Below, piece by piece: positions 839 to 45,387 of a DNA stretch of 64,000 bases. Within the stretch, counting starts at the first letter, position 1. Each line of letters opens with the position of its first letter. The notes below the pieces were generated by a model. It saw only the letters and a list, made by a program, of their open reading frames with translations. It ran no database searches and was not told where the DNA came from. Position numbers and translations under genes: made by a program. This stretch comes from Candidatus Liptonbacteria bacterium (GTDB lineage Bacteria; Patescibacteriota; Minisyncoccia; UBA6257; JACOXY01), in NCBI GenBank assembly GCA_016182095.1, contig JACOXY010000011.1, positions 3,794-67,793 on the forward strand, read 5' to 3'.

Positions 839-938
839 TGTATTCTCCTTATCCACCAGAGCGCTGAAACTACAGTATCACGGCGACTTATTTAGTGCAA
901 TGGCATGGTAGCGTGCAACAACGGGCCAGCTCATGAAT

Positions 939-1017
939 CCACAACATTCCAACATTCTGCTCGCCATGCCGAAGCTTTATGCGAAGCGAAGGATGGCAGA
1001 ATGTTAGAATGTTGTGG
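939..1017. repeat. Family-1 palindromic element, copy A: 22 bp inverted arms (1 mismatch) around a 35 bp interior
   Basis: Left arm ccacaacattccaacattctgc and right arm gcagaatgttagaatgttgtgg match each other and the arms of copies at 2507, 2824 and 22178. It lies just upstream of the 599..838 gene. Confidence 0.8.
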
Positions 1018-1062
1018 AGTAAGCTGAAATATTAGATAGCCTTCTTCCTTCTCATTGGTTTT

Positions 1063-1596
1063 CTAGGAGCACCGAAGATCGCCAAAATGTGAATGGAGCT
1101 CGCTTGCAGCAAATACAAGATATACTTTTTCCTTTTCATCCACAAGCAACATAGGCAAATGTTCTTCATACCAACTTGACCACGGTGACAATTCAAACAC
1201 TTCATCATCTGCAAAGTACACCTCTACAGGAAGCGGAGCGTTGGAGTCTGAAGAAAAAGAGGGCGTTAGCATATCCGCATATGCGTTTTGTATCTCCTCG
1301 CGTGATAGCTTACTTGCGCGAAATTGCCCCGCAATGTAGTCGCAATGGTTTGAATTGCCGAAGTTCCCAACATATGCCAATTTTGAAAGGGGCCGCGAGT
1401 TAATCGGATGTGCCGCGTCAATAACCGCATGGAGGTGCTTTTGAAGCGTCCGCAGGCGGTACTCATGTAGCGGTATTGTTGATGCCGTGGGGATAGCGAG
1501 AACACCAAAGATGACGCCAACAAACAATGCTACACCTCCGAGGATAACAAATCTTGGTCGTTCACGAAAAACGGTTTTTATTTTTTCTGCAACCAT
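1063..1596 (-). CDS. hypothetical membrane-anchored protein (one N-terminal TM helix)
   Basis: ORF with a hydrophobic N-terminal segment (FVILGGVALFVGVIFGVLAI); overlaps the upstream ORF by 19 bp, which suggests an operon. Confidence 0.45.
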   Translation of the reverse strand: MVAEKIKTVFRERPRFVILGGVALFVGVIFGVLAIPTASTIPLHEYRLRTLQKHLHAVIDAAHPINSRPLSKLAYVGNFGNSNHCDYIAGQFRASKLSREEIQNAYADMLTPSFSSDSNAPLPVEVYFADDEVFELSPWSSWYEEHLPMLLVDEKEKVYLVFAASELHSHFGDLRCS

Positions 1597-2519
1597 AGTT
1601 TTGAAAGCCGGTAAAACTCGCCGGAAATTTGTTTACCGCGTTTATCTGATTTACGATCTTCTTTTTGTTCTGGATCGCCGTATCCCTTATGATAACGTGT
1701 AGCAATAATGTCCAGATGGCGTAAAAGGTCAATATGCTCCGACCACAGGTCAATAACGAAACGTATGAATGCGGCGGCAAAAAAGATGTTGTGCTCTGGC
1801 AAAATGAGATAAGTGTAAAGGTGCGCGCGTCCGGCATTGGTAAGTCGCTTGTATGGCAATTTTTTGTCGGACAAATTTGGGTGATATATTCCTTTCTTTA
1901 TAAGGTCGTGCGCGGTATCTATTTTTACTTGCGCGAGACCAACTGACGCGTCATATCCAACTATTCGCGCGGCGAGTTCCGCAACCATATCCTTGAATGG
2001 CTCAATGCGTGCAATTTCGTCAATCAAAACCGCGCCCAAGAGATACGGATCAATGTCAAATTTCTCTGCCGCTTCAAATATCAGCAAGCGGTGCGGGACA
2101 AATTTTGCTTTGACTGCGGCTTTAAGTACTTTCGGCTGATTAACAGGCTCAATAAATGGCTGCCCTTCTTCAAGCGAAGCGATATATAGTTCGACGTATC
2201 TACTGAGTATTGGCGTGCTGTTCGCGTGGCGCGTGCCGTCCATAAACGCCAAAAGCGCGCGGCTCGTAATAGAAAGCTGGTCAAATTCATCCTGTTTTGA
2301 AATCTTTTGATTGGTGTGCAGATACGCTCCTGAAGCGCGCCTCACAACATGCGCGCCATATATTCCCCCTCTCGCTGCACGGTTAAGCGCCTCTTCAAGC
2401 GCAAACGCTTTCAGTGTATCCGAGGCGAAAGCAAGACTTTTTTTTCTTGTATCTGTTATGACTAAAATTATTTTAATGCTCATGCGCTTATTATATATCA
2501 TCTCACAACATTCTAACAT
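1578..2519 (-). CDS. hypothetical protein; start uncertain
   Basis: Long ORF. The annotated ATG at 2519 lies inside palindrome B, so the internal ATGs at 2501 or 2483 are more plausible starts. No clear family motif. Confidence 0.45.
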   Translation of the reverse strand: MLECCEMIYNKRMSIKIILVITDTRKKSLAFASDTLKAFALEEALNRAARGGIYGAHVVRRASGAYLHTNQKISKQDEFDQLSITSRALLAFMDGTRHANSTPILSRYVELYIASLEEGQPFIEPVNQPKVLKAAVKAKFVPHRLLIFEAAEKFDIDPYLLGAVLIDEIARIEPFKDMVAELAARIVGYDASVGLAQVKIDTAHDLIKKGIYHPNLSDKKLPYKRLTNAGRAHLYTYLILPEHNIFFAAAFIRFVIDLWSEHIDLLRHLDIIATRYHKGYGDPEQKEDRKSDKRGKQISGEFYRLSKLWLQKK

Positions 2520-2540
2520 TCTGCAGAATGTTAGAATGTT
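2507..2540. repeat. Family-1 palindrome, copy B: perfect 34 bp palindrome aacattctaacattctgcagaatgttagaatgtt
   Basis: Perfect reverse-complement symmetry around a central ctgcag. It overlaps the stop of the ArsR-like gene and the annotated start of 1578..2519. Confidence 0.85.
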
Positions 2541-2797
2541 TGCATGAACTTAAAAAATGCTTTTCCGTAAGGAGAGAGCAGATGAGTTACCTCTCGGCCT
2601 CTGTATTTTTTATTTAAAAGACCAGCGTGAACAAGCGCGCGGGTGTGCTGGGAAATGGTTTTGAAGTTTCCGCCAAGTTTTTCCGTAATTTCAAAAACCG
2701 TGATTCCTTCATGTTTGTGAACGATATCAAGAATTGCAATGCGCCAGTGATTTGCCGCGCCTTTGAAATATCGCTCTAATTGCTTTGGTGTTTTCAT
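2531..2797 (-). CDS. ArsR/SmtB-family winged-helix transcriptional regulator
   Basis: HWRIAILDIV...ITVFEITEKLGGNFKTISQHTRALVHAGLL matches the ArsR helix-turn-helix and wing. The gene is flanked on both sides by Family-1 palindromes. Confidence 0.65.
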   Translation of the reverse strand: MKTPKQLERYFKGAANHWRIAILDIVHKHEGITVFEITEKLGGNFKTISQHTRALVHAGLLNKKYRGREVTHLLSPYGKAFFKFMQTF

Positions 2798-2823
2798 AAA
2801 AATTATCTTATCACATTACTTAC

Positions 2824-2857
2824 AATATTCCAACATTCTGCAGAATGTTGGAATATT
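2824..2857. repeat. Family-1 palindrome, copy C: perfect 34 bp palindrome aatattccaacattctgcagaatgttggaatatt
   Basis: Perfect palindrome located between the stop of the GT4 gene (2859) and the start of the regulator gene (2797). Confidence 0.85.
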
Positions 2858-2858
2858 A

Positions 2859-4079
2859 TTATATAAACAATTTTGAATATTCTGCGAGCTGACGCTCAAA
2901 AGTGTAGTTTTCTTGGATAAGTTTTTTTTCGGCATCACCCATAACTTTTCTTTTATTTTTATCTTTCATGAGGCTGACGACTTCTTTAGCAAATTCTTGA
3001 GGATTATCTCGCACCACAAAATGTTCGGCGTCTTTAGCTCCAGTGATTCCTTCGGCGCCTACGGCAGTTGTTACGACCGCCGTACCAGTTGCCATAGATT
3101 CTAATACCTTGTTTTGCACCCCAGCTCCAATACGCATTGGAGCAACAGAAACGGCAGCTTTTTCCAATTCGTATTTAACATCGGGTACGTCTGCGTTTAC
3201 TTTTATATCATATTTACCATTAAGCCCCATTATATATGCCGTTGGGCTAGAGCCAACAATCTCAAAGCTTGTCTCGGGTGCTTCCTTTTTTATATAAGGG
3301 CAATAAATTTCTTCAACAAAATATCGCACCGCATCCTCGTTTTGGTGGGTTCTTAAGTTGCCTTCAAAAATAATGAGATTGGGATCACGCTCTTTTTCTT
3401 CTGTGATTAGAAAATTCTCCATAACTCCATTTCCCATTACTTTGAGCTTGCCTTTATATCTATTTTTTGTATTTCTGTTAAGATATTCGGCGTCTATCCG
3501 AGAAACTACCACGCCAGCATCAAACTTTTCCAAACACTGCTTTTCGTATTCGCGCACACGGCCTTCTTCAATTTTGTAGATTAGTCCCATAAGTCCGCGG
3601 CTGCCTTGTTCGCGACTCCGTTTGTAGTTTAAAGATATAGCGTCCGTAAGCTCAATAACTTTGGTAATGCTTCGACTCCGCTCAGCACCTACGGCATACG
3701 GCGCCATACGGATAAGGTGCGCCAAAATACCACCATACGAAGCGTTAGCGAGCGTGTCGTTTATCAAGCGCTGCATTTTTCTGGAATGATAATAGCTCAC
3801 CTGTAGCGGCTTGCGGCTAAAAAATCCAAGCGCGGCGTTAAGATATGACTGCCACCACGGGAGCCAAACAGTAACCACCTTTGAAAATACGTCATCGCGC
3901 TGAATCGTTTTTTCTTGCCCATCCTCAGTGAAAGAAAGCAGGGTCAAATTAAACCCCGCGCGTTTTAGCTCTTTGCAAACATGATAGATGCGCAGTTTAT
4001 CGCCACCAATAACAGGATAGGGATAGCGGGATGTGAGAACTAGAAGTTTCTTCATAAAAACATTAAAACATGCAAACAA
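2859..4079 (-). CDS. glycosyltransferase family 4 (GT-B, group 1)
   Basis: The C-terminal GT1 region ...FVEEIYCPYIKKEAPETSFEIVGSSP...MRIGAGVQNKVLESMATGTAVVTT... is typical of Glycos_transf_1. Confidence 0.8.
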   Translation of the reverse strand: MFACFNVFMKKLLVLTSRYPYPVIGGDKLRIYHVCKELKRAGFNLTLLSFTEDGQEKTIQRDDVFSKVVTVWLPWWQSYLNAALGFFSRKPLQVSYYHSRKMQRLINDTLANASYGGILAHLIRMAPYAVGAERSRSITKVIELTDAISLNYKRSREQGSRGLMGLIYKIEEGRVREYEKQCLEKFDAGVVVSRIDAEYLNRNTKNRYKGKLKVMGNGVMENFLITEEKERDPNLIIFEGNLRTHQNEDAVRYFVEEIYCPYIKKEAPETSFEIVGSSPTAYIMGLNGKYDIKVNADVPDVKYELEKAAVSVAPMRIGAGVQNKVLESMATGTAVVTTAVGAEGITGAKDAEHFVVRDNPQEFAKEVVSLMKDKNKRKVMGDAEKKLIQENYTFERQLAEYSKLFI

Positions 4080-4130
4080 TAAAACAAAAATCGTTGTTCT
4101 CTTGTTTTGTTGTTCTTTTGTTCTTTTATC

Positions 4131-6146: not shown

Positions 6147-8024
6147 TTAGATTTCTCTAACTAATATAAAATTTTCCAAAACCAACACATCCATCTTAGT
6201 CCTTAAAAAACAATCTATCGCTTCCTGTGGTTTATTTACAATCGGTTCATTTTCGTTAAAGGAGGTATTGAGCAAAATCGGCACGCCGGTAATCTGCCTA
6301 AAGGCGTCAATGAGCTGCCAGTAAAGAGGATTTTCTTTTTTGGACACGGTCTGTAGGCGCCCCGTACCGTCGGCATGCGTTACTGCGGGAATTTTCGCGC
6401 GCATTTCCGGTTTTATGGTATAAACTTTTTCCATAAAAGGCACTGCTGGAAAACCAATTTGGAGAGGTCGTACCTCCCCTGGAGGAACGACCTCCGCACC
6501 GCGCGGATCCAAAAAGTAGTCGCTAACATATTCCTCTAAAATTGATGGCGCAAACGGGCGAAAGCTTTCCCGTTTTTTTATTTTCAAATTTAAAATATCC
6601 TTCATGTCCGGCCGCGCAGGATTCGCAAGGATACTCCTATTCCCTAAAGCGCGCGGACCCCATTCGGTGCGCCCCTGAAACCAACCAACAATTTTGCCTT
6701 CCGCAAGCAGTTGCGCTGTTTTTTGTATAAGCATAGTTTCACCCAACTCCTGGACATCGCAAGTCCTAAGGACTTGCGATGTCCTTATATTGGCATCCAA
6801 AATGCTTTTAATTTCGCCATTATGATATTCCGGTCCCCAATAGGAGTGGACCATCGTAAAATTGCGTTCTTTATTCAAAATCTGATTCCAAACGTAAAAT
6901 GCCGCGCCTAAAGCTCCTCCGGCATCGTAGCCGGCTGGCTGAATAAAAACTTCTTTAAACGGAGAGTTTTTGAATATCTGACCGTTTGCCAAACTATTCT
7001 GCGCGGTACCTCCGGCAAAACAAAGATTTGTGCTCCTCGTTTCCTTGTGGAGTTTGTTAAGCAGAGCAAAAAAAACTTCTTCGTATATCGCCTGCGCGGA
7101 GGCGGCAATGTCTTTGTGCTTTTGGGTAAGCTCTGCGCTCTCTTCTCTGCTCGGCCCCAAAAGATCTTCTAACTTATTTGAGTAAAGCTTAGATAATTCC
7201 GGATATCCGCCCTCCCATGCCATTTTTACCTCGCCTTTTGCATGTAAAAAATATTCTTGGCTCAATTCAAAGATACCAGCGGCAGCGCTTCGACTTTGCT
7301 CAGCGGCTAAATTGTTAGCTCCTAAGCCCGTCGCAGAACTTCCCCTGTCTAGTTTTATACGCACAATTTCGCGCATTTCTTTCAGATATTTCGGCTTTCC
7401 AAAAGCCGCGAGCCCCATGACCTTATATTCATCGCCAAATTTCCAAAATCCCAAGAATTGTGTAATCGCAGTGTAAAAAAAACCGATAGAATCCGGATAA
7501 TTAATCTCTCCTAAAATTTTCATCTTATTTCCTTCGCCAACCCCCCACATAGCGCTTGAAAAATCTCCCATACCGTCAACCGAGAGAAGTGCCGCTTCCT
7601 CAAAGGGGGAAACAAAAAACGCGGAGGCAAGATGCGCAAGGTGATGCGAGATATTATAAAACTTAGCGCTAATCTGCGACTCCTTAATACCCAAAGCTTT
7701 GGCGAGTTCTTCCTTAACACCGACAACCTTGCGCTTATTTACAAATCTATTCCAAAGAGAGCGGAAACTTGGAAGGTTTTTCAACACAAACCAGATTTTT
7801 TTCCAATAGTTAGCCTTCGGGTCGCGATTCAAGGCAATATGCGAAACATCTTGAATGCGAATCCCGGCAAAATCCAAACAAAACTTAATAGACTCGCTAG
7901 GGAATCCGGCCCAATGCTTTACACGTCTAATACGCTCCTCTTCAATGGCAGCGACGAGCTTGCCATCTTTTATCAAACACGCGGCGGAATCGGCATGATA
8001 GGCGTTTATGCCAAGTACGTACAT
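6147..8024 (-). CDS. O-carbamoyltransferase (NodU/CmcH/NovN family)
   Basis: N-terminus MYVLGINAYHADSAACL..., then WGPRALGNRSILANP, NTSFNENEPIV and AVTHADGTGRLQTV, all hallmark blocks of CmcH_NodU carbamoyltransferases. Confidence 0.85.
   Translation of the reverse strand: MYVLGINAYHADSAACLIKDGKLVAAIEEERIRRVKHWAGFPSESIKFCLDFAGIRIQDVSHIALNRDPKANYWKKIWFVLKNLPSFRSLWNRFVNKRKVVGVKEELAKALGIKESQISAKFYNISHHLAHLASAFFVSPFEEAALLSVDGMGDFSSAMWGVGEGNKMKILGEINYPDSIGFFYTAITQFLGFWKFGDEYKVMGLAAFGKPKYLKEMREIVRIKLDRGSSATGLGANNLAAEQSRSAAAGIFELSQEYFLHAKGEVKMAWEGGYPELSKLYSNKLEDLLGPSREESAELTQKHKDIAASAQAIYEEVFFALLNKLHKETRSTNLCFAGGTAQNSLANGQIFKNSPFKEVFIQPAGYDAGGALGAAFYVWNQILNKERNFTMVHSYWGPEYHNGEIKSILDANIRTSQVLRTCDVQELGETMLIQKTAQLLAEGKIVGWFQGRTEWGPRALGNRSILANPARPDMKDILNLKIKKRESFRPFAPSILEEYVSDYFLDPRGAEVVPPGEVRPLQIGFPAVPFMEKVYTIKPEMRAKIPAVTHADGTGRLQTVSKKENPLYWQLIDAFRQITGVPILLNTSFNENEPIVNKPQEAIDCFLRTKMDVLVLENFILVREI
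6752..6784. repeat. Family-2 palindrome, copy 1 (16 bp arms), in-frame inside the carbamoyltransferase CDS
   Basis: ggacatcgcaagtcct-a-aggacttgcgatgtcc. A near-identical 34 bp copy lies intergenic at 45354..45387. Confidence 0.75.
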
Positions 8025-8030
8025 AATAAA

Positions 8031-8058
8031 TAGGGTTTAGGGTTTAGGGTTTAGGGTT
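8031..8058. repeat. (TTTAGGG)4 heptamer microsatellite spanning the stop codon of the GT2 gene
   Basis: tagggtttagggtttagggtttagggtt. It encodes the C-terminal ...TLNPKP* of 8037..8897 and ends 6 bp before the next gene's ATG. Confidence 0.85.
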
Positions 8059-8897
8059 CTCTTCTTTAGCTCATATATCTTAGAGTCGACTAAAAATCTG
8101 TACCAAAATCCCTGAAGGGTGTGCCATATTAACCCCGGTATACCGTCCAAGAATCCTAAACGAATAAAATAACGATATTTAAAGTATAGAAGAGCCCTCA
8201 AAAATGGAGGTAATTTATAATAAAAATTTTCCTTGTACCATCGCTTTTTTTCGGGATCAGAACCATGCCTGTCTGCCTTTATTGTTGTATTGTTCTGTTG
8301 TTCTGTTGTTTGAAGGTAAGCCTCCGCCTCCCTGGTCGCGTATTTATTGTGCTTTTCTATCCAAACAGACAAATTTTTCCTGTCATGTTCCTCAAAATCA
8401 TTTTGTAAATTAATAGTTTTCCCGCTAGATAAAATTACATGCTCATCCATCTCTCGTTCCTCATAACGGCCAGCATCTCTCCTCCAGAGACGCAAAAACC
8501 AAGCCGGATAATATCCGCCATGTTTAATCCACCTATTCATAAAGTAAACTCTCCTTTTTAAATAAAACCCCGTTGTTTCTCTTGTTAATTTGTTAAATTG
8601 TTCATTGATTTCATTCCATGTTTCGGGGAGCATTATCTCGTCCGCGTCCAAGCGCAAGATCCAGTCATTTTTAATAGCAACAGTGTCGAGTGCCCAGTTA
8701 AACTGCTCGGCCTGGTTTACGAACCTTCTCTGATGTACCTTGTCGGTATATTTTTTAACAATTTCCAGGGTTTTGTCGCGGCTCATGGAATCAACCACTA
8801 TAATCTCATCTACCCAATCGGCAATACTTTGCAGGCAGTTTTCAATATTTAGCTCTTCGTTGTAAGTAAGGATTATGGCGCTAATTGGCAATTTCAT
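8037..8897 (-). CDS. glycosyltransferase family 2 (LPS-core-type, WaaE/KdtX-like)
   Basis: AIILTYNEELNIENCL...VVDSMSRDKT...RLDADE carries the GT2 DxD motif and fold signature. Confidence 0.75.
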   Translation of the reverse strand: MKLPISAIILTYNEELNIENCLQSIADWVDEIIVVDSMSRDKTLEIVKKYTDKVHQRRFVNQAEQFNWALDTVAIKNDWILRLDADEIMLPETWNEINEQFNKLTRETTGFYLKRRVYFMNRWIKHGGYYPAWFLRLWRRDAGRYEEREMDEHVILSSGKTINLQNDFEEHDRKNLSVWIEKHNKYATREAEAYLQTTEQQNNTTIKADRHGSDPEKKRWYKENFYYKLPPFLRALLYFKYRYFIRLGFLDGIPGLIWHTLQGFWYRFLVDSKIYELKKRTLNPKP

Positions 8898-9609: not shown

Positions 9610-10812
9610 TCATACAAGCTCATTGTACGCCGCAAGCCACTTTTTAGCTATATTGGGCCAAGAGTATTTTTCTTCTACTAATTTTCTGCCTCGCTCGCCC
9701 AAAGCCTTCCTTAAATCGTCATCGCGTAAGAGACCTAAAATTGCCTTGGCCAATTGCTCCTCGTTTTTTTCTATCACAATTCCAGCTTTTGCTTCTCTCA
9801 CATCGGGCGTGATGCCAACTCCTTCTGTTATCACAACTGGCACGCTCCGCGCCATCGCCTCAACCACGGAGCCGCCAAAGTTTTCGGAATATGAGGGCAT
9901 AACAAACATGTCGGCGCTTTGATAGGCCGCGGCCTTATCTTCCCCGCGCAAATCTCCGGTAAAAATCACGCTGTTAGTTGGCAGTTGGTGATGAGTAGTG
10001 AGTAGTTGGATTTCCTTTTTGTAGCCCTCATCATCACCCCCAACAATTACCAAAACTAAATTGTTCTCTTGTTCTATTGTTCTATTGTTTTCTTGTCGAA
10101 CAACTTCCGCAAAGGCAGGAATTAAAGTGTCAAAGCCTTTTTTCCAGTTTAACCGCCCAAGCGAGAGCACAATTTTGGCGTTCCCGGGAATATTAAATTT
10201 TATTCTAAATTCACTCTTTAATTCCTCATTACTGTTTACTAATTTCTTTTCCATTTCCACTCCATTGGCGATCACAATCGCCTTATTTAGCGGCAATCCT
10301 AATTTTAGATACTCCTCTTTTTCCAGCTCGGTCGTAAAGTGGATCGCTGAAGCTCCCGACAAATTCTTTTTTTCTATTAAACTGATATATAACTTTTTCT
10401 TGAAACTACTTTTCTTTTCTATGAGTTCCGTGATTAAACTACCGCGTGGAGAAATAATGTACGGCTTATTAAATCTTTTAGCGTACTTGGCGCCAAAATA
10501 AGAAGCGGAAAGGAAAACAGAGGTAATGTGGATAATATCAAAATCTTTCAGTGAATCACGCAGCGCTAAACGCAAGTCTCGAGAATAGAACCAGGAACGC
10601 AAAAATCGCGACGCCTTAAAATAATAAATTTTAACGCCATCGATAATATCGGTTTTTGTCTGCAAATCATCTCCGCCATCAATATTGGTTGTATAAACAG
10701 TTACTTCGGCGCCTTCTTTCGCTACCCATTTATTCAGCCCATGAACGCTCTTAATCGGACCACCGTAGCGGTAAGCCGGAAGATAAGTTGGGACTATATG
10801 GAGAATCTTCAT
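9610..10812 (-). CDS. glycosyltransferase family 4; start reassigned to the MKILHIV ATG at 10812
   Basis: MKILHIVPTYLPAYRYGGP is a canonical GT4 N-terminus, and the C-terminus has ...FVMPSYSENFGGSVVEAMARSVPVV... The track's TTG start at 10854 adds an atypical 14 aa. Confidence 0.8.
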   Translation of the reverse strand: MKILHIVPTYLPAYRYGGPIKSVHGLNKWVAKEGAEVTVYTTNIDGGDDLQTKTDIIDGVKIYYFKASRFLRSWFYSRDLRLALRDSLKDFDIIHITSVFLSASYFGAKYAKRFNKPYIISPRGSLITELIEKKSSFKKKLYISLIEKKNLSGASAIHFTTELEKEEYLKLGLPLNKAIVIANGVEMEKKLVNSNEELKSEFRIKFNIPGNAKIVLSLGRLNWKKGFDTLIPAFAEVVRQENNRTIEQENNLVLVIVGGDDEGYKKEIQLLTTHHQLPTNSVIFTGDLRGEDKAAAYQSADMFVMPSYSENFGGSVVEAMARSVPVVITEGVGITPDVREAKAGIVIEKNEEQLAKAILGLLRDDDLRKALGERGRKLVEEKYSWPNIAKKWLAAYNELV

Positions 10813-21508: not shown

Positions 21509-22915
21509 TTATGGAAGCCAGTTGTTCCTGAATTTGTTTTCGTTTTTACTAATTTTCTCGAAGAGGGCAGTAACGCGAGAAGCCGATAATTCATGATTAA
21601 CATGCAGGTGGATGTAAAGCTGGTCCACAAGATAAAGCAGAAAAAAGTAATAAGCATCGCCTTTTTCTATATTCCAAAACTTGAGCATGCAGTCTAAAAT
21701 GCTTTGAATCTTAGTATTTTTTATAAAAAATAAATCTTGGATATTTCGTTCATATAACTCCACATAATTACCTTTTTTAAATCTACCGCCGCTTATTATC
21801 AAACTGTACAAATCGAAAATCTGCGGGAAGCCAAATCTCGCCTGCTCCCAGTCTATGACAAAAAACTTAGAACTTAGAACATTGAACATTGAACTGCTGG
21901 GGGCGGCAACACAAAGCATCTCAAAAAATGGAAACTCTCTCTTGGTAAGAGAAAAAATAAATGATTTGCTGTTTAAATTATCAACAGCTTTATCAAAAAA
22001 ATATTTTATCGACTTAAATCGTTCGTTGCTCATTTTTGATTGCAAAAATGAGAGTTCGCTTTGTATTTCGTTATAAAAATTAGATTCAGTAAAAATCTTT
22101 TCCTCTTTGGTTTTATCTGATAGTTTTTTTAAAAAATCAAGGTGGCAATTTTTAATAGCATCAATCCCGCGCGTACCACCAAACATTCCAACATTCTGCC
22201 CTAATTGGCCGAGCCAACGGGCTTTAGGCCCTAATTGGCCGAGCCAACGGGCTTTAGGCCCTAATTGGCCGAGCCAACGGGCTTTAGGCCCTAATTGGCC
22301 GAGCCAACGGGCTTTAGGCAGAATGTTGGAATGTTTGGTCTCTGATGATGGTGGTGGTGGGGAGAGAATTATGACAAGCGCTCCGCGAAAATAATCTTTG
22401 GCGAGTACCCGAGGAAAAGAAAATCCTGGTATATCTAATTTTTGTAAATAATCGAGGATTTTGGCTTCGTTCTCGCCATAAATCTCGCTTTCACGGCCAG
22501 GAAAATAAACTTTAGCGACACTCAAAAGCTTGCCGCTTTTTTCGCCAAAAATGGGAAGTATATATTTTCTGGAACCGGAGTAAACTGAAAAAGTGACCGG
22601 CTCTTCGAATTTGGTTTTAGAGGCGAGAAAAGAAAAAATCTCTTCGTTTTTGTCTACAAAAACTTTTTTTCTAAAAACAAACCACCAAACAAAATCAAGA
22701 TTAAAAATCCTTAAAAGAGTTATTTTGGCCTTACTCCAAAAATCTTTGCCTTTGTAAAGATAAAATTCTCTTAATGCGGCGGCTCGGAGATGCTTCGCGC
22801 CAAAAGGCAAAGCCACTCCGCTTTTTAAAAATTCACCGCTTAGCACCACGAATCGCGCCTCGCTAAAGCTACGAGATTTTTTTATATCTACTTTCTCAAA
22901 CAAATTCCACGGCAT
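21509..22915 (-). CDS. choline/aminoglycoside-kinase-like (APH-fold) protein carrying an in-frame 54-codon repeat insertion
   Basis: FFVIDWEQARFGFPQIFDL resembles the IDxE...FD block of choline kinase/APH. The expected HxDxxxxN catalytic motif is not evident. A 4x GPKARWLGQL repeat is encoded by the Family-1 element. Confidence 0.45.
   Translation of the reverse strand: MPWNLFEKVDIKKSRSFSEARFVVLSGEFLKSGVALPFGAKHLRAAALREFYLYKGKDFWSKAKITLLRIFNLDFVWWFVFRKKVFVDKNEEIFSFLASKTKFEEPVTFSVYSGSRKYILPIFGEKSGKLLSVAKVYFPGRESEIYGENEAKILDYLQKLDIPGFSFPRVLAKDYFRGALVIILSPPPPSSETKHSNILPKARWLGQLGPKARWLGQLGPKARWLGQLGPKARWLGQLGQNVGMFGGTRGIDAIKNCHLDFLKKLSDKTKEEKIFTESNFYNEIQSELSFLQSKMSNERFKSIKYFFDKAVDNLNSKSFIFSLTKREFPFFEMLCVAAPSSSMFNVLSSKFFVIDWEQARFGFPQIFDLYSLIISGGRFKKGNYVELYERNIQDLFFIKNTKIQSILDCMLKFWNIEKGDAYYFFLLYLVDQLYIHLHVNHELSASRVTALFEKISKNENKFRNNWLP
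22178..22339. repeat. Family-1 palindromic element, copy D: 23 bp perfect inverted arms around 4 x 30 bp tandem repeats (162 bp total), in-frame within a CDS
   Basis: Arms accaaacattccaacattctgcc / ggcagaatgttggaatgtttggt. The interior is (ctaattggccgagccaacgggctttaggcc)x4. Its length is a multiple of 3 and the host ORF stays open. Confidence 0.85.
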
Positions 22916-27016: not shown

Positions 27017-27132
27017 CTCTAAAACGCTAAACTCTAATTTCTAAACTCTAAACAATTTCTCTGCTAAAGGCGGATTAGCTTTCGGCTAAAAAACTCAAAA
27101 TTTCAAACGCTTTGAAAATTATAATTTAGAGC
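27017..27132 (-). promoter_or_regulatory. conserved leader/promoter element, copy 1 (upstream of the aminotransferase gene)
   Basis: About 90% identical to 31193..31335 and 32380..32440. It contains a TTTAGAGTTTAGAAATTAGAGTTTAG motif and a small hairpin YAGCYTTCGGCTR with a compensatory change between copies. Confidence 0.55.
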
Positions 27133-32379: not shown

Positions 32380-32440
32380 AGCAAACTCTAAACTCTAATT
32401 TCTAAACTCTAAACAATTTCAAAATTCAAAGCTCTAAATT
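32380..32440 (-). promoter_or_regulatory. conserved leader/promoter element, copy 3 (shorter, lacks the hairpin part)
   Basis: aaactctaaactctaatttctaaactctaaacaatttc is nearly identical to the first 40 nt of copies 1 and 2. Confidence 0.5.
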
Positions 32441-32818
32441 CTAAGATCTGCTCTTCCCGCTCTTTTCAATAATTGATCCGAAAATTCTCATAAGTTCTTC
32501 AGCTTCATTGGTGAGAACTACGCACTCTTGCTCAAGGGTAACAACATTGCCCGTGTCAAGCAACCGAAGCCAAGATCGACTTTCTTTGGCTTCTTTCCTG
32601 CAGATTTTTATTCTGTGCATACCGTCTTTTTTACTCAATGTCTCGACAAACTCTATAAAATTGGCATGCGTTGAGCCAGAGGAGCGCGCGAGCTGCTTCC
32701 CATCTTCTATGTTTCCAATAGTTCTTGGTAATTCTTTGACGAGAACACGGCATCGTTTCGCAAATAAAAAAGTTCTTTCTTCAAGATTATATGGTTTTGA
32801 GTTTTGAGTTTCCGGCAT
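32441..32818 (-). CDS. four-helix-bundle protein (23S rRNA intervening-sequence protein family, TIGR02436)
   Basis: ERTFLFAKRCRVLVKELP...ARSSGSTHANFIEFVE...KICRKEAKESRSWLRLL matches the family consensus. Confidence 0.6.
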   Translation of the reverse strand: MPETQNSKPYNLEERTFLFAKRCRVLVKELPRTIGNIEDGKQLARSSGSTHANFIEFVETLSKKDGMHRIKICRKEAKESRSWLRLLDTGNVVTLEQECVVLTNEAEELMRIFGSIIEKSGKSRS

Positions 32819-32849
32819 TTGAGTTTATTTAGAATTTAGAGTTTAGGAT

Positions 32850-34274
32850 TTAGAGTTTGTTGATGTAACTTTTTACATCAACCACATACATCTGTCGGCT
32901 ACCGTCATGCACCGAATCAAAACAAATTTGAGTACCATCACGATTCCAGCGCGGATGAAGATCGGAGCGCATTTCGCTTATATCCCACGGCTCAACGCGG
33001 CCATCGGGCAGCGTATTTGTTTTTAAGCCAGAGGGCAAGGAATGGAACTTACCAATCTCTATTTTTTTTCCGGTTATCCAATTATAAAGAATAAGCGCGC
33101 GATAATGATTTTTGTCCGGGTATGTATCTGTTATAACCCAATTTCCGTCGTATGAAAATTGCGGGTGGCCGTCTTCGGTCATTAAACCCACCGCGATACG
33201 CCTTACTTTTTCAGATTTATCATGCAACAAGAAATAACTTTGACCCGCAATTTTTTGCTTTAAACTGCCGCGCAGTAATCTCACCAATCGCAGGAGAGGC
33301 TTAAATAAAGGATTATTTAAAATTCCAATTCTTCGCAGAGCCACCGCTTGAGGACTCCATTTCCCGTAAGCTAAAATTTCCGCGTCATTACGCCAACCAA
33401 AGTGAGAAATGTGGCCCGGCAAAACGTAAATATCGCCGCCATCTGGATTCGCTGTTACAAACCGCTGCATAGATCCGCCATCGGGTAATAAGAACTTGTC
33501 GACAAAACAGATTCGCGTGCCGGATGGATTAAAGTTAACATGAGTGAGATAGTGATGCTCATTTTCTCGTGGAAAGTTATTGAGATGCGCAACATCGTGA
33601 ATAGAAATTGCTAATTTAACTTCTCCGGTCTCCAAATCAATCCGAAAAATACCGTCATCTTTAGGAAACGGCTCCTCAAGATTTAGAGTTTCGGATTTAG
33701 AGTTTAGAGTTTGATAGGCATAACCATAACCTCCATATTTTTTTAGGCGAGCAAAGTTAAGGCCCAGAGCAAACTTTCCGTTCGGACTAACCGCGTAAAT
33801 CGGGGCGGGTAGCACTTTTTTTTCGCCAGTTTCTACATCCAATATCACGGAGACAAACCGCTCTCCCTGCCTATCATTGTAGATACACTTTCTTACAATA
33901 TTGGGGTTTCGGATGTCCAACCCGGACCCATCAATATTTGGGACATCCGAAGCAACGCCACCAGGCAGCCACTGCAATCGTGAACCTTGATGAAAATTCC
34001 ATGCATTGGTCTCTGCCAATGCTACCAATGACATTTGACCATTAACATTTGACCCCGAATCAAAACCTTTGGTTTTTGACGGGGCAAGCATATCTATCAA
34101 ACAAATACGCGCGGTATCCGAAGCGGTGGGAGGACGATATATAAAATCAACTTCTTCGGCAAGTAAAAATCTGCCTGATGCATCCCACGGACACAAATCG
34201 TGAAAACCAAAGAAGTGATGTTTTGGCCCAACGGTTACACCTTTTATTGGGAACTTGGAAATAAGATTTGGCAC
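32850..34274 (-). CDS. beta-propeller (TolB/PD40-like) domain protein
   Basis: Repeated ...SPNGKF..., ...NPDGGDIYVL..., ...HPRWNRDGTQICFDS...DGSRQMYVVDV blocks typical of PD40-type propeller blades; low specificity. Confidence 0.4.
   Translation of the reverse strand: MPNLISKFPIKGVTVGPKHHFFGFHDLCPWDASGRFLLAEEVDFIYRPPTASDTARICLIDMLAPSKTKGFDSGSNVNGQMSLVALAETNAWNFHQGSRLQWLPGGVASDVPNIDGSGLDIRNPNIVRKCIYNDRQGERFVSVILDVETGEKKVLPAPIYAVSPNGKFALGLNFARLKKYGGYGYAYQTLNSKSETLNLEEPFPKDDGIFRIDLETGEVKLAISIHDVAHLNNFPRENEHHYLTHVNFNPSGTRICFVDKFLLPDGGSMQRFVTANPDGGDIYVLPGHISHFGWRNDAEILAYGKWSPQAVALRRIGILNNPLFKPLLRLVRLLRGSLKQKIAGQSYFLLHDKSEKVRRIAVGLMTEDGHPQFSYDGNWVITDTYPDKNHYRALILYNWITGKKIEIGKFHSLPSGLKTNTLPDGRVEPWDISEMRSDLHPRWNRDGTQICFDSVHDGSRQMYVVDVKSYINKL
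33680..33713. repeat. TTTAGAG/TTTAGGA heptamer cluster inside the propeller CDS (encodes ...QTLNSKSETLNLEE...)
   Basis: atttagagtttcggatttagagtttagagttt is the same heptamer family as the intergenic leader motif and the (TTTAGGG)4 repeat. Confidence 0.6.
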
Positions 34275-45353: not shown

Positions 45354-45387
45354 GGACATCGCAAGTCCTTAAGGACTTGCGATGTCC
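45354..45387. repeat. Family-2 palindrome, copy 2: perfect 34 bp palindrome ggacatcgcaagtccttaaggacttgcgatgtcc (intergenic)
   Basis: Perfect palindrome whose arms are identical to the copy at 6752..6784 inside the carbamoyltransferase CDS. Confidence 0.8.

Follow-up and report, generated by a model that had tools for sequence, protein, structure and literature searches.

Does a palindrome that flanks a small regulator gene and lies beside two further transcription units act as the operator of a local regulon, or is it a mobile element that has caught the regulator gene between two of its copies? This question is raised by a 64,000-nt stretch of contig JACOXY010000011.1 from the metagenome-assembled genome (MAG) of a member of Candidatus Liptonbacteria, an ultra-small bacterium of groundwater; the stretch is referred to here as the window. 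In it, an 88-aa protein of the ArsR/SmtB-type winged helix-turn-helix (wHTH) fold is encoded between two copies of a perfect 34-bp palindrome, designated family 1, and two further copies occur elsewhere in the window. The answer that we consider probable differs from both alternatives: gene and palindrome would form an autoregulated module, whose site doubles as a dispersed and maintained element resembling repetitive extragenic palindromic (REP) sequences and Rickettsia palindromic elements (RPE).

The palindromes had been described in a sequence-only reading of the window, and this description holds with small changes of extent. The two perfect 34-bp palindromes are present at 2507-2540 and 2824-2857 and do lie at the two ends of the 88-aa gene. 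The upstream one precedes the ATG, ending 27 nt before it and starting 1 nt past the stop of a GT4-type glycosyltransferase open reading frame (ORF) at 2859-4079. The downstream one holds the stop codon, as its arm supplies the last codons and the stop of the regulator (..ACA TTC TAA; Thr-Phe-stop). The genes of this local region are all encoded on the minus strand. The split copy near a zinc-ribbon gene is real and spans 938-1018, and the copy reported at 22178 is also real, extends to 22339 and lies in frame inside an ORF on the minus strand. The family-1 arm consists of two tandem 8-mers (AACATTCY), and the consensus reads (A)(C/A)AACATTC[C/T]AACATTCTG in one arm and CAGAATGTT[G/A]GAATGTT(G/T)(T) in the other, with a half-element consensus reaching about 19 nt. 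Within the window, the 18-nt core occurs twice with at most three mismatches (0.06 expected), and there are 11 occurrences of the 17-nt half-site (0.72 expected); no shuffle reached either number. All four window copies form very stable predicted hairpins, and for the palindrome hairpins energies of -20 to -21 kcal/mol (z -5.7 to -7.5) were obtained.

The arrangement of palindrome, gene and palindrome recurs far beyond the window. A family-1 pattern scan with one genome per species yielded at least 119 loci; the scan required near-consensus sites, and all counts of copies, loci and neighbours given here rest on the loci among the matches listed and on loci that were fetched directly. At least 787 homologues of the regulator were found; most have a length of exactly 88 aa and share 70-85% identity between Parcubacteria lineages. 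At least 39 loci contain a homologue. The same bracket is present in another Liptonbacteria MAG, one Sungbacteria MAG and two Giovannonibacteria MAGs with wholly different neighbours, and it recurs in about 25 genomes of Lipton-, Sung-, Giovannoni-, Harrison-, Brenner- and Taylorbacteria, Kiritimatiellia and others. The spacing is narrow: in 20 of 34 homologous loci the centre of the downstream palindrome falls exactly 7 nt past the stop, and in 25 loci the centre of the upstream palindrome precedes the ATG by 30-56 nt (mode 43-46). No two of the examined regulator loci share both neighbours, and the wHTH protein is the sole recurrent protein family near the palindromes among the matches listed (28 loci). 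The 119 listed loci span many Patescibacteria lineages as well as Kiritimatiellia, Verrucomicrobiota, Lentisphaerae, WOR-3 and HR35 MAGs.

In divergent homologues, the repeat changes together with the protein. A homologue with 57% identity (L015) is bracketed by AACATCCTTA-N14-TAAGGATGTT, which is present in five copies within 8 kb, a homologue with 37% identity (L034) has TTCCAGTGTTTTGCAAAACACTGGAA on both sides of its gene, and a homologue with 49% identity (L115) has the variant TTCCAATATTCTGCAGAATATTGGAA. This co-variation is the strongest in-silico evidence that the protein would recognise the palindrome, and it excludes the idea of a passenger gene. Since the bracket is moreover kept among ever-different neighbours, gene and palindrome are best described as a cognate pair.

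The 88-aa protein is a distant ArsR/SmtB relative, a member by its predicted fold, of the sensor-less kind to which PagR, HlyU, NolR and AspA belong, and a non-member by curated sequence thresholds. The AlphaFold2 model (pLDDT 90) contains helices at residues 4-14, 17-28, 34-41, 45-57 and 76-87 and strands at 61-66 and 69-74, which corresponds to the alpha1-alpha2-alpha3-alphaR-beta-beta-alpha5 winged-helix fold of this family. The best Foldseek matches were ArsR, SmtB, PagR, CadC, HlyU and CzrA with template modelling scores of 0.8-0.88, and AspA was among both the sequence and the fold matches. The curated cut-offs were not reached in Pfam (HTH_5, 20.7 vs 22; HTH_20, 22.4 vs 27; MarR, 22.9 vs 24.6) or for the NCBIfam model HTH_metalloreg (40.5 vs 55), and the top PDB sequence match had an E-value of 0.005. 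No metal or metalloid ligands were found in the protein, which has no Cys among its 88 aa and no His, Asp or Glu ligand set in alpha5 (PYGKAFFKFMQTF). For this reason it looks like a sensor-less DNA binder.

A putative promoter of the regulator has its -35 hexamer TTGGAA inside the gene-facing arm of the upstream palindrome. At regulator-facing upstream sites, a TAnnnT motif lies 16-19 nt from the arm hexamer in 8 of 15 cases (53%), compared with 11% of lone copies facing a gene start and 11% of non-facing sides, which represent the background. The same motif ends 5-9 nt before the start codon in 14 of 21 homologues, compared with 1-6 of 21 in control windows. This pattern suggests leaderless transcripts and an operator covering the -35/spacer region, which in turn points to autorepression. 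Binding of the wHTH protein to the palindrome at its own promoter, as envisaged in the sequence-only reading, is thus supported by the conserved layout, the co-variation of the repeat and the overlap with the -35/spacer.

Accordingly arranged, the module would consist of a palindrome with the promoter, then the gene and then a palindrome over the stop codon. The protein, lacking a sensor site, may occupy the palindrome in dimeric form; alternatively, a dimer of dimers may sit on the two 8-mers of each arm. With the upstream copy on the -35/spacer of a leaderless-type promoter, the gene would repress itself. The downstream copy could serve as a second binding site and/or as a 3' hairpin, and in this window it could also dampen the 301+177-aa operon. 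The palindrome has in addition been copied elsewhere, including in frame into housekeeping genes, and no target-site duplication was found. The features of the window that belong to this scheme or surround it are listed in Table 1.

Table 1. Family-1 palindromes, regulator gene and neighbouring genes in the window (positions counted from its first letter).
Feature	Position	Strand	Description
Upstream family-1 palindrome	2824-2857		C-type, perfect 34 bp, arms AATATTCCAACATTCTG and CAGAATGTTGGAATATT; probable operator overlapping the regulator promoter
Downstream family-1 palindrome	2507-2540		T-type, perfect 34 bp, arms AACATTCTAACATTCTG and CAGAATGTTAGAATGTT; candidate second binding site and/or 3' hairpin
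Lone split family-1 copy	938-1018		37-nt insert (960-996) at the centre
Lone family-1 copy within coding sequence 21509-22915 (minus)	22178-22339		42-bp palindrome arms ACCAAACATTCCAACATTCTG and CAGAATGTTGGAATGTTTGGT plus 4 x 30 bp central tandem units
88-aa ArsR/SmtB-fold wHTH gene	2531-2797	minus	no Cys, no alpha5 metal site
Putative leaderless-type promoter of the regulator	2805-2833	minus	-35 TTGGAA (2833->2828), 17-nt spacer, -10 TAAGAT (2810->2805), 7 nt to ATG
Two-gene operon	1063-2483	minus	neighbours, not conserved targets
301-aa Tse3/DUF1402-like muramidase homologue	1578-2483	minus	database gene call
177-aa protein	1063-1596	minus	conserved pair with the 301-aa gene

The second half of the proposal concerns the copies outside the bracket. 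After removal of duplicates, at least 108 lone copies were counted in the 119 listed loci, of which 65 are intergenic, 13 lie over an ORF end and 30 (28%) are inside ORFs. The classifiable intergenic copies comprise 43 between co-directional, 15 (23%) between convergent and 6 between divergent genes, and many intergenic copies are found 0-25 nt past a stop codon. Inside ORFs, the frame most often read is of the KHSNILQNVGM type: 19 of the 30 copies are translated as (K/Q/E)HSNILQNVGM, 8 as TFQHSAECWNV and 3 as NIPTFCRMLEC. The hosts are ordinary housekeeping genes, namely those for PGK, UvrB, TsaD (twice), PrmC (three times), class-II FBP aldolase, 6PGD, FAD-linked oxidase (twice), Mur ligase, TspO, YchF, class-V aminotransferase and GT1. 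Alignments with palindrome-free orthologues show gaps at the insertion points for PGK, FAD oxidase, TsaD, 6PGD, Mur ligase and TspO. The 468-aa protein of the window likewise carries an in-frame palindromic insertion of the RPE type, as eight of ten aligned members of its family lack the inserted segment. In one family member (P0123/L125), a plain palindrome of 42 bp, perfect and equal to exactly 14 codons, occupies the position of the insert. Its 21-nt arms recur unchanged in the window copy, which adds a 4 x 30-bp array and is read in frame as ..TKHSNIL[PKARWLGQLG]x4QNVGMFG..

With copy boundaries set anywhere from 16 to 24 nt, direct repeats of 3-5 nt did not exceed expectation, and no transposase or recombinase recurs among the 980 ORFs of the 119 listed loci, a set that represents the loci and not whole genomes. 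Membership in the miniature inverted-repeat transposable elements (MITEs) fails on both of these points. In three orthologous pairs whose palindromes occupy matching sites, identity is 91-97% within the palindromes, compared with 63-81% in the 150-nt coding flanks. One explanation for the dispersal would be a purely selfish mobile palindrome of the MITE or RPE type with the regulator as a trapped passenger. It would account for the in-frame insertions in housekeeping genes, for the orthologues without them and for the spread of the element across phyla, as well as for the MAG CAZVCF01, in which a larger imperfect palindrome made of CAAAATG-type heptamers is common to three copies over about 170 bp, which implies that larger units can be copied too. 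This explanation is nevertheless very improbable, because a passenger would not be expected in a bracket that is exact to the nucleotide in about 25 genomes, with its centre 7 nt past the stop, nor beside a site that changes with the protein, and because neither target-site duplication nor transposase was found and the copies are far better preserved than their flanks. The corresponding alternative in the sequence-only reading therefore holds in one part, since the palindrome is a dispersed insertion-type element, and fails in the other, since the regulator is not a passenger between two copies.

The copies stay perfect and do not decay. At arm position 10, 91 of 158 copies are C/C, 53 are T/T and only 14 are asymmetric, whereas 83 matches would be expected if the arms were independent; in general, a change at a variable position of one arm is matched in the other. 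The TAA stop codon forces a T on the inner arm of downstream copies, and the outer arm follows (18 T/T, 4 C/C, 5 asymmetric). Differences between orthologous copies inside coding sequences are few and symmetric, and the palindrome is conserved to the base across genomes of 27% to 58% GC.

This symmetry could indicate that the element acts as a nucleic-acid hairpin, either as a 3'-end former or stabiliser in RNA or as a single-stranded DNA hairpin or cruciform, with the wHTH protein merely using one copy as its operator. The co-variation of the arms, including the compensation of the stop-codon T, the symmetric differences between orthologues, the predicted stability, the many copies shortly past stop codons and the 15 copies between convergent genes are all consistent with such a function. 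However, sequence and not pairing alone is kept across the whole range of GC contents, the bracket and the co-variation of protein and site would remain unexplained, and no Rfam family matched at gathering score, with only sub-threshold matches to miRNA-like hairpins. The stem is also AT-rich (35% GC), and T-tracts after the stem are no richer in intergenic copies than in copies inside coding sequences. A hairpin function as the primary role is thus quite improbable. An intrinsic terminator in particular was rejected: there is no GC-rich stem with a U-tract, the terminator scan did not call the copies, and the T-tracts are uninformative, so that a plain terminator role is unsupported.

A further property of the copies is their centre. 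In four independent cases, foreign DNA is located exactly between CTG and CAG. The inserts measure 37 nt and 120 nt in the window copies at 938-1018 and 22178-22339, respectively; the downstream palindrome of L040 holds 24 nt, and two WOR-3 copies hold 8 nt (GTAATTAC). The palindrome centre is therefore evidently fragile or reactive. In the split copy, the two arms (938-960 and 996-1018) have 23 nt each and are 96% complementary. The insert in the 468-aa ORF consists of four exact tandem copies of a self-complementary 30-bp unit, GCCCTAATTGGCCGAGCCAACGGGCTTTAG, at 22199-22318, each translated as PKARWLGQLG. Neither the 37-nt insert nor the 30-nt unit had a further match, whether in the rest of the window or among the 126-133 loci compared. 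Both window copies are lone copies that later acquired foreign DNA at their centre.

Inserts at this position, together with the layout of site, gene and site in ever-changing neighbourhoods, would also be expected of a site-specific recombination cassette. Here, the 11-6-11 core ATTCTAACATT CTGCAG AATGTTAGAAT would be a tyrosine-recombinase site, at which a circular wHTH cassette integrated into a lone copy. The geometry resembles dif or lox cores, and pdif modules and integron cassettes are similar. Several observations make this hardly likely. The split copies hold half-sites instead of duplicated full sites, a central crossover should leave hybrid arms whereas the upstream copies are C/C and the downstream copies T/T, and no linked recombinase was found in the listed loci. 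A pair of an empty and a filled site for the regulator cassette was likewise not found, as no pair of loci shares both neighbours. A tyrosine-recombinase core or pdif module was accordingly rejected as a classification, given the matched C/C or T/T arms and the lack of a linked recombinase in the listed loci.

Whether the palindrome also controls the neighbouring transcription units is a separate matter. A simple local regulon, in which the wHTH protein would repress the 301+177-aa operon and the zinc-ribbon gene in addition to its own gene, fits the window at first sight. Three of the four window copies lie less than 2 kb from the regulator, and the downstream one is situated just upstream of a TATAAT (2495->2490) that itself lies 6 nt before ATG 2483. 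Copies are also enriched near the regulator, as regulator loci hold an additional copy every 17 kb and loci found through a lone copy every 79 kb (about five-fold; listed loci), and L015 has five copies of its subfamily repeat, each ahead of a gene. The sequence-only reading had let the palindrome at 2507 overlap the start of an operon running from 2519 to 1063. The start is ATG 2483 according to the 301-aa gene call and to homologues of 297-305 aa, and the palindrome therefore ends 24 nt upstream of it without overlap. Against a regulon, L127 and L128 lack a family-1 palindrome both before and after their orthologous 301+177-aa operons, and orthologues of this operon show no synteny with the regulator. 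Conversely, the downstream palindrome is present in L001, L013, L040 and L119 although the next gene is convergent, and it thus belongs to the regulator module. The copy at 938-1018 follows the 177-aa gene, 45 nt past its stop codon, and precedes the zinc-ribbon gene (599-838; ATG 838, with AAGGAG ahead) by about 80 nt; it is split by its insert and remains about 40 nt upstream of any plausible -35 for that gene.

The lone copies as a whole lead to the same result. Those facing a gene start have -10 boxes no more often than the background, and as a class they are not promoter operators. Of the lone copies, 28% are inside ORFs, further ones lie between convergent genes, and no functional coherence was found among the genes beside palindromes in the listed loci. 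The extension of the operator to the neighbouring units as a regulon, which the sequence-only reading had proposed, does not hold: the palindrome is no simple switch for neighbouring genes, and as a general explanation the local regulon is already contradicted, which leaves it improbable overall. The same reading had regarded scatter across the genome, also within coding sequences, and absence from orthologous promoters as signs against any operator function. The palindrome is indeed scattered, often inside coding sequences, and absent from the orthologous promoters of the neighbours, but it is present at the orthologous promoter of the regulator.

If the copies are indifferent to gene boundaries and yet strongly conserved, even inside coding sequences, they could be functional binding sites at the level of the chromosome. 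The wHTH protein would then be an architectural or segregation protein or a roadblock for replication forks or transcription. The density of copies suggests about 10-20 per genome, clustered near the module, although this estimate is rough because it covers the listed near-consensus sites only. Clustering around the protein's own gene, the sensor-less protein and the match to AspA agree with this explanation, for which ParB-parS, the ArsR-like centromere binder AspA of pNOB8 and RTP-Ter of B. subtilis provide analogues. Nevertheless, no linked ParA-like or other partner gene was found in the listed loci, a perfect palindrome would block replication forks in both directions, and the insertion-type origin is alien to parS or Ter, so that we regard it as unlikely.

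A broader reading, possible though less likely than not, is that of an undescribed and widespread genome punctuation system in Patescibacteria and some members of the Planctomycetes-Verrucomicrobia-Chlamydiae (PVC) group. In this case, a minimal sensor-less ArsR-fold protein and its 34-42-bp palindrome could form a self-bracketed module, with the palindrome actively written into new sites of the chromosome, in frame even in essential genes, and kept perfect there because the protein uses the sites. Possibly, such sites would act as roadblocks for transcription or replication or as landmarks for chromosome organisation, and would be neither a regulon nor junk DNA.

Several points weigh against the autoregulated module with a dispersed site. 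The link between protein and site is drawn entirely from position, conservation and co-variation. Counts of copies are lower bounds from a near-consensus scan, and any genome-by-genome pairing of protein and palindrome is therefore provisional. The strict consensus scan did not call the regulator promoter, which is a weak match to the consensus. UvrB (L047), YchF (L001) and PrmC (L098) carry the palindrome with essentially no net change in length, which does not fit a simple insertion and looks like a replacement. Finally, the symmetry of the arms exceeds what a dimeric protein needs and may be unrelated to the protein; the excess points to hairpin or cruciform pairing, or to arm-to-arm templating, as an added constraint.

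Compared with known systems, the autoregulated module combines properties that are otherwise found apart. With ArsR/SmtB autorepressors without metal sites such as PagR, HlyU, NolR and SdpR, which have inverted-repeat operators of the 12-2-12 type, it shares the full-length fold of a small dimeric wHTH protein and, judged by position, a long inverted repeat over its own promoter. Unlike these, the protein is below every curated cut-off and lacks sensor residues; the stop codon of its gene carries a further, fixed copy of the site, and dispersed copies extend into coding sequences. The sequence is, moreover, extremely conserved (70-85%) across lineages of the Candidate Phyla Radiation (CPR) and Kiritimatiellia. 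REP sequences with their REP-associated tyrosine transposases (RAYTs), known together as REPtrons, are similar in being short dispersed palindromes, mostly extragenic and often past gene 3' ends, with one gene flanked by copies. In contrast to them, the flanked gene encodes an 88-aa ArsR-fold wHTH protein and not an HUH/Y1 (IS200/IS605-like) transposase, there is no GTAG-type 5' tetranucleotide, the density is about one per 80 kb instead of hundreds per genome, and 28% of copies in the listed loci are inside ORFs.

Rickettsia RPE provide the closest parallel for these latter copies, as they are palindromic DNA translated in frame in housekeeping genes, with one frame preferred and no known transposase. 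They differ in length (about 100-150 bp compared with 34-42 bp), in decaying where family-1 copies are perfect, and in lacking a bracketed gene for a dedicated binding protein, and the hosts here are Patescibacteria and PVC bacteria. RTP-Ter and pNOB8 AspA are small winged-helix dimers whose sites, about 23-30 bp long, adjoin and regulate the gene of the protein itself, and several further sites serve purposes other than promoter control. Unlike these, the family-1 sites are perfect palindromes of insertional origin, and neither partner genes nor signs of replication arrest or partition were found in the listed loci. In summary, the system behaves like a dispersed palindrome of the REP/RPE type with a DNA-binding protein, not a transposase, as its partner, and not like a promoter regulon. 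Searches for related entries returned no match to the 28-nt palindrome in IMG/VR, no phage match to the 88-aa protein and, on plasmids, only generic ArsR proteins at up to 38% identity, and full-text searches of the literature found nothing on such an element in CPR bacteria.

CPR bacteria, or Patescibacteria, have tiny genomes with few regulators and almost no experimental genetics. If the module is correctly described, the 88-aa protein and its 34-bp site would be one of the most conserved protein-DNA pairs of this group and directly testable in vitro. The preserved in-frame insertions in PGK, UvrB, TsaD, PrmC and others would be a second, independent case similar to Rickettsia RPE, with a candidate partner, and a perfect palindrome copied without a transposase raises the question of the means of copying. 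In practice, the 42-bp element is also a marker whose presence can mislead gene calling and distort alignments of core proteins in CPR bacteria.

The further spread of the element is seen in the loci L096, L046/L074/L083/L108 and L013/L043/L059. The element and regulators with 68-77% identity occur in MAGs labelled as Pacearchaeota archaeon, Gammaproteobacteria and Verrucomicrobiota, some of which may have been misbinned or mislabelled. The element is also carried by several Kiritimatiellia MAGs that are independent of each other, on contigs of up to 176 kb with 52-58% GC. The PVC occurrences look real, which implies horizontal transfer; between CPR and Kiritimatiellia the regulators are 70-77% identical.

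Individual loci show local variation. In L057, two lone copies and the regulator-upstream copy (938-971, 1838-1871 and 2767-2800) share an asymmetric variant (..CTGCAGATTGTCGG..) and some of the flank; the 38-mers at 1838 and upstream of the regulator are identical, and a recent local duplication is the likely cause. In L015 (3210-6593), three further copies of AACATCCTTA-N14-TAAGGATGTT each lie 18-52 nt upstream of consecutive genes, a cluster that does look regulon-like, and the locus also carries a family-1 lone copy at 7472. Two observations concern the operon next to the regulator. On the P0148 contig, a 297+177-aa muramidase-like pair is located together with a Fic gene between the genes for ribosomal proteins L5 and S8 in the ribosomal protein operon of another genome, which suggests that the two genes are mobile in their own right and were inserted there. 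In L128, an unrelated perfect palindrome (CCCTCGACATCGGATGTCGAGGG-like) at about 1030-1055 precedes the orthologue of the muramidase-like operon; different palindrome families appear to occupy equivalent positions in different genomes.

The window contains other repeats as well. A second family of perfect palindromes, GGACATCGCAAGTCCT(A/TA)AGGACTTGCGATGTCC, is present at 6752-6784, inside a 625-aa carbamoyltransferase-like ORF (6147-8024, minus strand) where it is read as ..RTSQVLRTCDV.., and at 45354-45387 in an intergenic region. Five more copies were found in metagenomes (L129-L133), at least one of them inside a glycosyltransferase ORF, and no linked wHTH gene was seen on these short contigs. 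In addition, many short intergenic tandem arrays with units of 7-8 bp occur, for instance at 4053-4127, 8031-8058, 8280-8310, 10060-10089, 27017-27053, 32383-32449, 32827-32858 and 33682-33712. Their units are of the TTGTTCT type and the CTCTAAA/TTTAGAG type and include four exact copies of the telomere-like TAGGGTT. As the family-1 arms are tandem 8-mers and CAAAATG arrays flank the CAZVCF01 palindrome, such arrays and the palindromes may be related.

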